A DNA stretch of 17,262 nt from a virus (lineage: Duplodnaviria > Heunggongvirae > Uroviricota > Caudoviricetes), in the IMG/VR virus record IMGVR_UViG_2531839193_000017, one strand, 5' to 3'. A program made the position numbers and the translations under genes. Shown piece after piece: positions 8,896 to 9,698 of the stretch; position 1 is the first letter of the stretch; every line of letters begins with the position of its first letter. The notes under the pieces were generated by a model that made no database searches, had not been told where the DNA came from, and saw nothing but the letters and a program-made list of their open reading frames with translations.

Positions 8896-9273
8896 ATGAC
8901 CAACAAAGAAAACAAAGATAAATATATTAACAAGTTCAAGAAAGAGCTTTCAAAATATATACAACCAACTGCTGGAGTGGACATTCAATTATTTAACTCT
9001 AAGGATGGTGGTGGTGTAATTAAAGCCACTTTGAATAGAAGTGGAAAAAGAAAATCATCTATTGCTGGTAATTTTACTAAATTAGGTGAGGCAATTACCT
9101 CGAGTGGGCAGAGGGTTTTTGGTGGTGATCTATCAAATGTGAATTTTTACGGAACAAATACGATTTTTGATGGAGATACAATATTTTTAATTAAATCACC
9201 TGATTCAGAGGAGTGGTCATCACAAAAAGCTTCCAAAGACGTAGAGGGCATCGTATTTGGAGGGAAAAAATGA
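8896..9273 (+). CDS. hypothetical soluble protein, Lys/Gly-rich, AT-rich orphan gene (cassette gene 1)
   Basis: 125-aa ORF with no hydrophobic segment and no recognised family; markedly AT-rich compared with neighbouring prophage genes. Its stop overlaps the next gene's ATG (ATGA at 9270-9273). Confidence 0.5.
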   Translation: MTNKENKDKYINKFKKELSKYIQPTAGVDIQLFNSKDGGGVIKATLNRSGKRKSSIAGNFTKLGEAITSSGQRVFGGDLSNVNFYGTNTIFDGDTIFLIKSPDSEEWSSQKASKDVEGIVFGGKK

Positions 9274-9698
9274 TTAACATTACTACTAAGGATGGCACTC
9301 AAGTCAGTGGTGAAGTAAGAGATCTAGTAATTCTTCTTGAAACTGATGGAAAAACGGTGTCTGATTATTTGCAGCCAATCCCTCCCAAAAAAGATACACA
9401 CTGGAGCATGATTTTCATTCCGGTAGCAATTTATATACTACTTAATCTTGTATACATTATTGCTCACCCATTATTTCCTGAAAAATATCTAAAAACATCA
9501 ACATCTATATTTCTATTCATTTCCTTCATATTAAGTGCAATAGTAGCATATTTTGTTTTCCATAAGCATAAATCTGCCACTCTATCCATATGCAGCTTAG
9601 TGTTCTTAGTGTTAATTGTAGGTGCTAACGTAGGGTTTATCAGTTACAGCGACCTAACACAAAAAGCGACGCAAAAATTAGATAGTTTGTCTAAATAA
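9270..9698 (+). CDS. hypothetical small membrane protein, three predicted transmembrane helices (cassette gene 2)
   Basis: ATG at 9270 is preceded by GGAGGG five nt upstream. A hydrophilic N-terminal part of about 45 aa is followed by IFIPVAIYILLNLVYIIAHPLF, IFLFISFILSAIVAYFVF and ICSLVFLVLIVGANVGFISY. AT-rich; no recognised family. Confidence 0.5.
   Translation: MINITTKDGTQVSGEVRDLVILLETDGKTVSDYLQPIPPKKDTHWSMIFIPVAIYILLNLVYIIAHPLFPEKYLKTSTSIFLFISFILSAIVAYFVFHKHKSATLSICSLVFLVLIVGANVGFISYSDLTQKATQKLDSLSK

Follow-up and report, generated by a model that had tools for sequence, protein, structure and literature searches.

Two small overlapping genes, A and B, were analysed computationally in a 17,262-nucleotide stretch of a Caudoviricetes genome (IMG/VR virus record IMGVR_UViG_2531839193_000017), referred to below as the window. 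Both genes are evidently protein-coding and carry the signals of translational coupling. Their relatives lie side by side from Enterobacteriaceae to Bacteroidota and Acidobacteriota, have diverged together and occur in mobile as well as defence-linked contexts. The product of A is soluble, while that of B has a hydrophilic N-terminal domain followed by three hydrophobic helices. The pair is read here as a self-contained, horizontally mobile two-gene conflict module in which the cytoplasmic protein A would control the membrane effector B, a reading to which we give slightly less than an even chance.

Conservation of the gene pair and its place in the prophage

An earlier note, made from the sequence, had described two co-directional open reading frames (ORFs) of 125 and 142 amino acids (aa) with an ATGA overlap and a GGAGGG Shine-Dalgarno sequence for the second, and they read as it stated. 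The stop codon of A and the start codon of B share four bases (ATGA, 9270-9273). Compared with the Klebsiella-type copy, gene A showed a nonsynonymous divergence (dN) of 0.155 and a synonymous divergence (dS) of 1.90 (dN/dS ∼0.08), and gene B a dN of 0.225 and a dS of 2.47 (dN/dS ∼0.09). Judged by these substitution rates, A and B are genuine genes under strong purifying selection. At least 1000 contigs carry each exact protein; most annotations come from Shigella sonnei and E. coli, and all read 'hypothetical protein', which is also the name of the RefSeq entries WP_000182282.1 (A) and WP_000608370.1 (B). AT-rich DNA has few chance stop-free stretches, yet it is often poorly expressed, and no consensus promoter was found; the two frames might thus be regarded as non-functional chance ORFs or decaying remnants. 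This explanation is refuted in practice by the low dN/dS (∼0.08-0.09) at saturated dS, by the abundance of the exact proteins (at least 1000 contigs each) and by motif-bearing full-length homologues across phyla, and its probability is negligible.

Close homologues (at least 63% identity) are restricted to Escherichia/Shigella, Enterobacter and Klebsiella, and to this extent the pair is the orphan that the earlier note took it for. The description does not hold for remote relatives. An exhaustive HMMER search with a profile of A against 1.84 billion cluster representatives yielded 111 proteins at E ≤ 1e-3, counted as clusters at 50% identity, nearly all of them 120-135 aa long and matched over their full length. 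They came from deltaproteobacterial, Acidobacteriota, Myxococcales, candidate-phylum and betaproteobacterial metagenome-assembled genomes (MAGs), from Mariniflexile, Bacteroides and Flavobacterium genomes, from four viral contigs and from several metagenome contigs. Part of the remote loci were retrieved with the alignment of the YINNFRR subgroup of the A family.

A and B were adjacent in every readable locus, as a check of co-occurrence suggested by the earlier note had asked. Outside the enterobacteria, a B-like gene follows A directly in all 23 of the 23 readable loci, usually with a 4- or 8-base overlap. Among ∼27 enterobacterial loci, an intact B stands directly after A in all except one (L047), where B is frameshifted. 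Eleven prophage contexts were examined. In each, the 142-aa gene directly adjoins the 125-aa gene and overlaps it by 4 bases (1 base in L008), and both run antisense to the early operon and lie between the replication or early genes and NinB or DUF1367. These prophages differ in their replication module (O/P, DnaB-type or DnaC/IstB-type), their Q antiterminators and their nin genes. A further 18 prophage contigs with A were found in IMG/VR; ten of them were read and have the same layout, including L047 with its frameshifted B. Pairwise distances of A and B were correlated with a Pearson r of 0.86 (105 pairs from 15 loci), from which it follows that the two genes have been inherited together without exchange of partners. 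No third conserved gene was found beside the pair in the prophage contexts or the remote loci. The pair was absent from 50,697 deposited phage genomes (tblastn and megablast) and is known only from prophages and metagenomes. In a betaproteobacterial MAG (L029, 5001-5846), A is frameshifted (111 aa with a divergent tail), while the frame of B stays open and is extended at its C-terminus. The frameshift reflects decay or an indel error of the assembly, and it bears on the question of whether A is needed to tolerate B.

By its genes, namely essD, rrrD, rzpD, an ompC/nmpC-type porin, quuD, ylcG, rusA, ybcO, ninE and ybcN, the surrounding region is that of a DLP12-type cryptic lambdoid prophage, whose host is probably Shigella sonnei. 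The genes flanking the pair (quuD, ylcG, rusA, ybcO, ninE and ybcN) are all on the minus strand, and the GC content is 0.33-0.37 over 8801-9800 compared with 0.52-0.58 over the nin region to the left (8001-8800); the higher AT content and the opposite strand had both been noted before. The IS1 element that had been placed on the right starts with its left end at 9806, directly after a remnant of the replication gene P. Of 5,426 complete E. coli genomes, 46 contain the 1.1-kb stretch 8700-9806 with 99.7-99.8% identity. There, the pair is located between P and ylcH-ybcN, antisense to the entire early-right operon, and in intact prophages it is ∼3 kb away from the repressor genes. The earlier view that it occupies the position of the replication genes was thus not upheld: O and P have been lost here to IS1, and the pair is not their replacement. 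Its location between P and ylcH-ybcN on the strand opposite the early-right operon identifies it as cargo in the P-to-ybcN slot.

This slot is occupied by ren in lambda and by emrE-ylcJ-ybcK-ybcL-ybcM in the DLP12 prophage of K-12, in agreement with the accessory or moron position that had been proposed. The features of a moron were found in atypical GC content, in presence or absence among related prophages (46 of 5,426 E. coli genomes for the pair, ∼2,200 for the flanks) and in the alternative cargo of K-12; as transcription signals, a conserved -10-like element and a 3' hairpin were seen in the sequence. Both genes are intact, although the prophage has been shredded by IS1, IS2-like and IS21-like elements. 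In one prophage (L008, 5665-7348), the space between NinB and the pair holds a colicin-like gene of 377 aa and, on the opposite strand, a gene resembling colicin immunity genes (weak Pfam hits), and the slot therefore stacks several cassettes.

The two proteins and known systems

The product of A is a soluble α/β protein without a signal peptide. In the alignment of its family (A3, 86 sequences), the conserved positions are Y10, G39, F84-x-G-T-N, L-I-K100, W107 and D115. The AlphaFold2 (AF2) model has the topology H-EE-H-EE-H with a poorly defined middle, at a low confidence (predicted local distance difference test, pLDDT, 58.5; predicted template modelling score, pTM, 0.61). It should be considered that the models of A and B were built on shallow enterobacterial alignments, prior to the finding of the remote homologues. 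Two unusual relatives of A were observed. P0104 (447 aa; L017/L018, 246-1589) is a fusion of an A-family domain (∼7-119) to an HNH nuclease and a C-terminal half of unknown type; its contigs are too short to reveal neighbours or a following B gene. In P0013 (127 aa, on a European Nucleotide Archive contig of 1145 bp), a pentapeptide-repeat N-terminus is followed by the final 50 residues of A with 100% identity; the product is probably a chimera of assembly or gene calling.

The product of B was said to have a hydrophilic N-terminus and three hydrophobic helices, and this is borne out by a hydrophilic stretch of ∼45 aa followed by hydrophobic segments at 48-64, 80-96 and 103-119. Its predicted parts are a conserved soluble N-domain (1 to ∼43, a beta-hairpin and a helix), followed by three transmembrane helices and, at the C-terminus, a short amphipathic one. 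The AF2 model places helices at 44-68, 71-100 and 103-141, again with low confidence (pLDDT 67.7). Relatives of B (alignments A2 and A6) are 125-155 aa long and share an N-domain of ∼35-50 residues, three hydrophobic helices, of which the second and third are joined by a basic loop, and a short amphipathic tail. The recurring pattern of their N-domain is K-[IL]-x3-E-G-x3-E-[IV]-x-[DN]-...-G-...-D-Y-...-P. Across the family, 23 positive and 6 negative charges were counted in loop 2 (between helices 2 and 3) and 16 positive and 10 negative ones in loop 1 (between helices 1 and 2). This distribution weakly suggests that B is an inner-membrane protein with an N-in/C-out topology and with its N-domain in the cytoplasm, together with A. 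A class I holin, i.e. a protein with three transmembrane helices, an N-out/C-in topology and a place beside the endolysin, was considered for B and rejected: the N-domain has ∼43 aa and a charge bias for N-in, the gene is far from the lysis genes essD-rrrD-rzpD, and the family occurs outside phages as well.

Neither protein had been recognised at first sight, and no described family was matched in the databases either. Pfam, NCBIfam (June 2026) and PADLOC gave nothing meaningful for A, B or their families, apart from sub-threshold generic transmembrane hits of B such as 7TMR-DISM. Sequence and profile searches of PDB with A, the A family and the B family led to chance-level matches only, and fold libraries were likewise without a match. 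Full-length membership was found in phrog_18061 for A (E = 9e-85) and in phrog_16940 for B (E = 2e-96), two families of 'unknown function' with no name, mechanism or recognised pairing; phrog_18061 matches all 86 of the 86 A-family sequences tested. The pair is undescribed in the literature as searched by accession, PHROG id and peptide strings, a search that did not extend to Brenes & Laub 2025.

RexAB of lambda is a lysogen-expressed two-gene module in which a soluble sensor is proposed to control a membrane effector. RexA/RexB, and the RexAB-type gp30/gp31 of mycobacteriophage Sbash, resemble A and B in having a cytoplasmic partner upstream and a polytopic inner-membrane protein of ∼140 aa downstream. 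Homology was not found with hhalign: lambda RexB gave a probability of 0.2% (E = 0.29) with the B family (A6), and lambda RexA one of 0.3% with the A family (A3). RexA is considerably larger than A (279 vs 125 aa), and RexB, with four transmembrane helices, lacks the soluble N-domain that B has in addition to its three helices. Moreover, rex lies beside cI under PRM, while A and B lie between P and ninB on the opposite strand and outside the immunity region.

CptA/CptB (YgfX/SdhE), a protein toxin-antitoxin pair whose toxin is a membrane protein, is encoded by an overlapping operon with a small soluble protein first and a membrane protein of ∼135 aa second. The soluble-first, membrane-second order and the overlap of the genes are shared with A and B. 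In contrast to CptA/YgfX, B has three helices instead of two, a conserved cytoplasmic N-domain and no Pfam match, and A has no Pfam match to SdhE. The lambda gene ren shares the slot between P and ninB/ybcN, but it encodes a single protein of 96 aa on the strand of the early operon. Homology of A to Ren was not found (hhalign probability 0.1%), and the pair is not on the strand of P. The emrE-ylcJ-ybcK-ybcL-ybcM genes of K-12 DLP12 also share the slot and are unrelated in gene content. Modules on mobile elements that pair a soluble protein with a small membrane effector are known, while these two families, their pairing and its breadth are undescribed in the resources searched.

Weighing the function of the pair

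Outside lambdoid prophages, the pair was found in diverse contexts. In a Bacteroides genome (L026), the co-directional order is SNF2 helicase, DUF4391, unknown gene, Type III methyltransferase, A, B and Type III restriction enzyme. The prrC gene sits inside the prr type I restriction-modification (R-M) locus, and PrrC, a latent effector, is a single cytoplasmic anticodon nuclease. The insertion of A and B between the mod and res genes recalls this placement, in one locus only, and the presumed effector B is a membrane protein, unlike the cytoplasmic PrrC. In a deltaproteobacterial MAG, BrxA and BrxB of a BREX system follow directly downstream of the pair. The Mariniflexile copy is flanked by rve-type and DDE transposases, another (L016) adjoins PIN and DUF4160/DUF2442 genes, and a third (L019) lies in a phage-like contig. 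Upstream of the latter, a 545-aa protein had a likeness to GHKL-type ATPases by eye that was unconfirmed, with no match in Pfam or PADLOC. A 4.8-kb contig (L015) has the order Rep, A, B, MobC and relaxase as well as two unannotated genes on the opposite strand; it looks like a small mobilisable plasmid with A and B as its recognisable cargo.

The constant company of two small, translationally coupled genes, the combination of a soluble protein with a membrane protein that has a conserved, predicted cytoplasmic N-domain, a patchy and horizontally acquired spread, carriage by prophages, a plasmid and transposase-flanked segments, and the placement beside R-M and BREX genes form the pattern of conflict genes and not of physiological ones. 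Together with the purifying selection on both genes, their correlated distances and their intact state in a shredded prophage, they support the conflict module. The fusion of an A-family domain to an HNH nuclease in P0104 was also counted in its favour, with the nuclease as an alternative effector, and so was the other cargo of the prophage slot, i.e. that of K-12 and the colicin-like and immunity-like genes of L008.

For the conflict module, we infer expression, contact between A and B, membrane damage, a phage trigger and antisense self-control along the following lines. The lysogen would transcribe A and B from their own weak promoter, antisense to the early-right operon, and the ATGA overlap would give a fixed proportion of the two proteins in translation. 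B would be inserted into the inner membrane with its N-domain of ∼40 residues in the cytoplasm, where A could bind to it and act either as an opening sensor or as a releasable brake. Upon infection by another phage, B would oligomerise and breach or depolarise the membrane, and the infection would be aborted or excluded in a Rex-like manner. During the lytic growth of the prophage itself, anti-terminated early transcription running antisense through the cassette would damp A and B. The constant antisense orientation in lambdoid prophages suggests such a silencing of the cassette by early transcription in the phage's own lytic cycle. A more specific version of this idea is a new anti-phage immune system spanning phyla and carried by prophages, plasmids and defence islands, with A as a small cytoplasmic sensor of new fold, B as a new three-helix effector gated via its N-domain, and, in lambdoid prophages, antisense transcription from pR as an off-switch. 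This is a tentative proposal, and somewhat doubtful.

Several points speak against the conflict module. A role in defence, toxicity or immunity is deduced from architecture and neighbourhood only. Other copies of the pair have ordinary genes as neighbours (valS, a CLC channel, a TonB-dependent receptor and a type II secretion system gene), and a recognised defence system is touched in only 2 of ∼14 context-resolved non-enterobacterial loci; the association with defence genes is therefore real, but confined to a minority of loci. PADLOC-DB v2.0.0, including the PD-T4/PD-lambda, Rst, Gao, Millman and PDC candidate families, had no family at E ≤ 1 for A or B. In the DefensePredictor, metagenomic selection and E. 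coli pangenome selection screens, the pair was not found by accession or peptide, i.e. it was unsampled or unscored there. No sensor, enzymatic or nucleic-acid-binding domain can be recognised in A, for which AF2 gave a low-confidence model; the positive-inside signal for the N-in topology of B is weak; and no promoter was called upstream of A in a sigma-70 consensus scan. Finally, the architecture of the pair fits a plain toxin-antitoxin system equally well.

In such a toxin-antitoxin or addiction module, B would be a membrane toxin and A its antitoxin, coupled upstream, and the module would stabilise a prophage, plasmid or island without any sensing of phages. The usual type II layout is found in gene order, 4-base overlap and sizes, and A upstream, B downstream, the ATGA overlap and the internal Shine-Dalgarno sequence are kept across the family. 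It is also consistent with the pair being the only recognisable cargo of the small mobilisable plasmid, with its PIN and DUF4160/DUF2442 neighbours in L016 and with its intact state in a heavily decayed prophage; the loss of B before A in L047 is the expected order of decay. Against this, searches of Pfam, NCBIfam and PADLOC revealed no helix-turn-helix, ribbon-helix-helix, AbrB or Phd-type domain and no match to a known toxin or antitoxin family, and A is without a detectable DNA-binding or other antitoxin-type domain. The open B beside a frameshifted A in L029 should be lethal in a strict toxin-antitoxin pair, unless the frameshift is an assembly error, and the insertion into an R-M operon and the BREX neighbour suggest more than addiction. 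On balance, a plain addiction module is unlikely, albeit a candidate to be taken seriously; given the fact that many toxin-antitoxin pairs are also anti-phage, it overlaps with the conflict module.

Several family members among ordinary chromosomal genes and the missing match in defence databases could also be explained by an accessory function outside conflict, with A and B as a membrane-anchored regulatory, stress or transport-associated pair that is incidentally mobile. The conserved polar residues Y10, T87, N88, K100 and D115 of A could form a ligand or active site. Such a function is at odds with the patchy, horizontally transferred distribution (46 of 5,426 E. coli genomes; 111 clusters among 1.84 billion representatives), the AT-rich foreign composition and the repeated placement in prophages, on a plasmid, between transposases and beside R-M or BREX genes, and it is regarded as rather improbable.

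Non-abortive superinfection exclusion was considered as well. In this case B, helped or positioned by A, would block phage DNA entry or receptor function and leave the cell unharmed, comparable to P22 SieA, T4 Imm/Sp and Cor/Llp. B is a predicted small inner-membrane protein from a prophage accessory slot, and its orientation, always antisense to the lytic operon, fits a lysogen-specific expression. Known exclusion proteins of this type work without a partner and are specific to particular combinations of phage and host, whereas B has a conserved cytoplasmic partner and the pair is spread over Bacteroidota, Acidobacteriota and Myxococcota, a plasmid and chromosomal sites far from prophages. 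PHROGs and Pfam showed no match to an annotated exclusion family. This explanation is considered quite improbable.

Transcription signals, further features and significance

The features of the locus are listed in Table 1. The left edge of the AT-rich insert is set near 8810, because the similarity to lambdoid phages is limited to 8703-8809 (query bases 4-110); a ylcH-like small coding sequence is annotated in this conserved region in BH100N and in K-12. For the right boundary, coordinates were mapped from strain A7, in which P lies at locus positions 10078-10791 and locus position 9001 corresponds to position 8700 of the window.

Table 1. Coordinates of genes A and B, their signals and the boundaries of the insert in the window.
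Feature	Position	Strand	Basis and remarks
Gene A	8896-9273	+	125 aa; ORF list
Gene B	9270-9698	+	142 aa, start ATG at 9270; ORF list
Shine-Dalgarno sequence GGAGGG of gene B	9259-9264	+	within gene A at its 3' end; separated by 5 nt from the start codon at 9270
-10-like hexamer TATACT, putative cassette promoter element	8854-8859	+	∼37 nt upstream of the gene A start; read from the sequence
Conserved lambdoid ylcH/ybcN upstream region	8700-8810	-	bounds the AT-rich cargo insert on the left; similar in HK639, phi80, phage 82 and others
Stem-loop just past the gene B stop	9701-9731		core GCCATGC-N7-GCATGGC, 9706-9726
Terminator-like hairpin with T-run, tR2-like position	9752-9770	-	immediately past the P remnant; sets the right limit of the AT-rich insert; consensus scan
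Gene P 3'-end remnant	9777-9805	-	29 bases; right boundary of intact-prophage homology; mapped from strain A7

The -10-like element TGTATACT that had been proposed upstream of A is present at 8852-8859, though as a promoter it is weak by consensus. Its hexamer matches the -10 consensus in 5 of 6 positions and lacks both an acceptable -35 element and a correctly spaced TG; it was passed over in the consensus scan because of the poor -35. The diverged cassettes L003 and L008 have an extended -10-like element (TGnTATAGT) at an equal distance from the start codon, which lends modest support to a putative cassette promoter upstream of A. Downstream of B, the RNA of 9696-9800 folds with -23.2 kcal/mol (z = -2.8 compared with shuffled controls). 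The stem is longer in Klebsiella-type cassettes (ATGCCATGCG/CGCATGGCAT) and has been kept although the coding dS is saturated. Judged from its sequence, the stem-loop is probably the end of the cassette transcript and/or a barrier to antisense read-in; its terminator function is put no more strongly, because the plus strand has no T-run after the stem.

In other A and B prophages, further accessory genes are carried by the immunity regions just past the repressor, namely an ImmA/IrrE peptidase with DUF4411 (L001, 13534-15182), a BstA-type KilA-N/BstA_C protein (L006, 13685-14446) and CbiA/AAA_31 ATPases (L007 and L010, ∼13734-14913).

The window is marked by insertion elements. An identical IS1 end occurs three times, at 4330, 9806 and 17042. 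The IS1 bounding the cassette (9806-12692) is split by an IS21-family element with istA (10138-11310, rve and Mu-transposase C) and istB (11307-12107), after which the insB frame of IS1 resumes (12189-12692). An rrrD-like lysozyme gene (2092-2481) is truncated by an IS2-like element with orfB (2533-3438, rve/HTH_21) and orfA (3485-3805), and the end sequence of the IS2-like element recurs at 125-289 and 3717-3869. The gene of a LacY-family sugar symporter is spread over two overlapping frames (12966-13601 and 13427-14086, plus strand) and is therefore a frameshift pseudogene. A PfkB-family sugar kinase fragment (17038-17262, minus strand) is found at the end of the window, and IS1 copies stand on either side of the symporter-kinase region. 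Symporter and kinase fragment (12966-17262) look like a sucrose/csc-type locus disrupted by IS activity. Between them, an AT-rich stretch with a GC content of 0.38-0.40 encodes a 200-aa multi-pass membrane protein (15524-16126, plus strand) and a 114-aa protein (14938-15282, minus strand), both without a Pfam match, and a 66-aa ORF (14615-14815, minus strand) resembles AlpA-type regulators by eye. This AT-rich block (14615-16126), which is bounded by IS1, may be another uncharacterised cargo block.

Concerning the prophage biology, the P-to-ninB slot is documented as a site of cargo exchange that has received emrE-ybcM, colicin-like and immunity-like genes, and A and B, and this holds even if the pair is a mere addiction module. 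Should the pair turn out to be a module of defence or toxin type, it would constitute a compact system of ∼0.8 kb with two protein families without described relatives, missed by current defence annotation tools. Its hosts comprise human pathogens and commensals (Shigella, E. coli, Klebsiella, Enterobacter and Bacteroides) as well as soil and aquatic phyla. Due to the small size, the strict two-gene architecture and the availability in E. coli prophages, the pair is directly testable, and its constant antisense placement offers a testable model of how a prophage avoids triggering its own cargo. If the proposed mechanism is true, A and B would be a second independent example, beside Rex, of a soluble partner controlling a minimal membrane effector.

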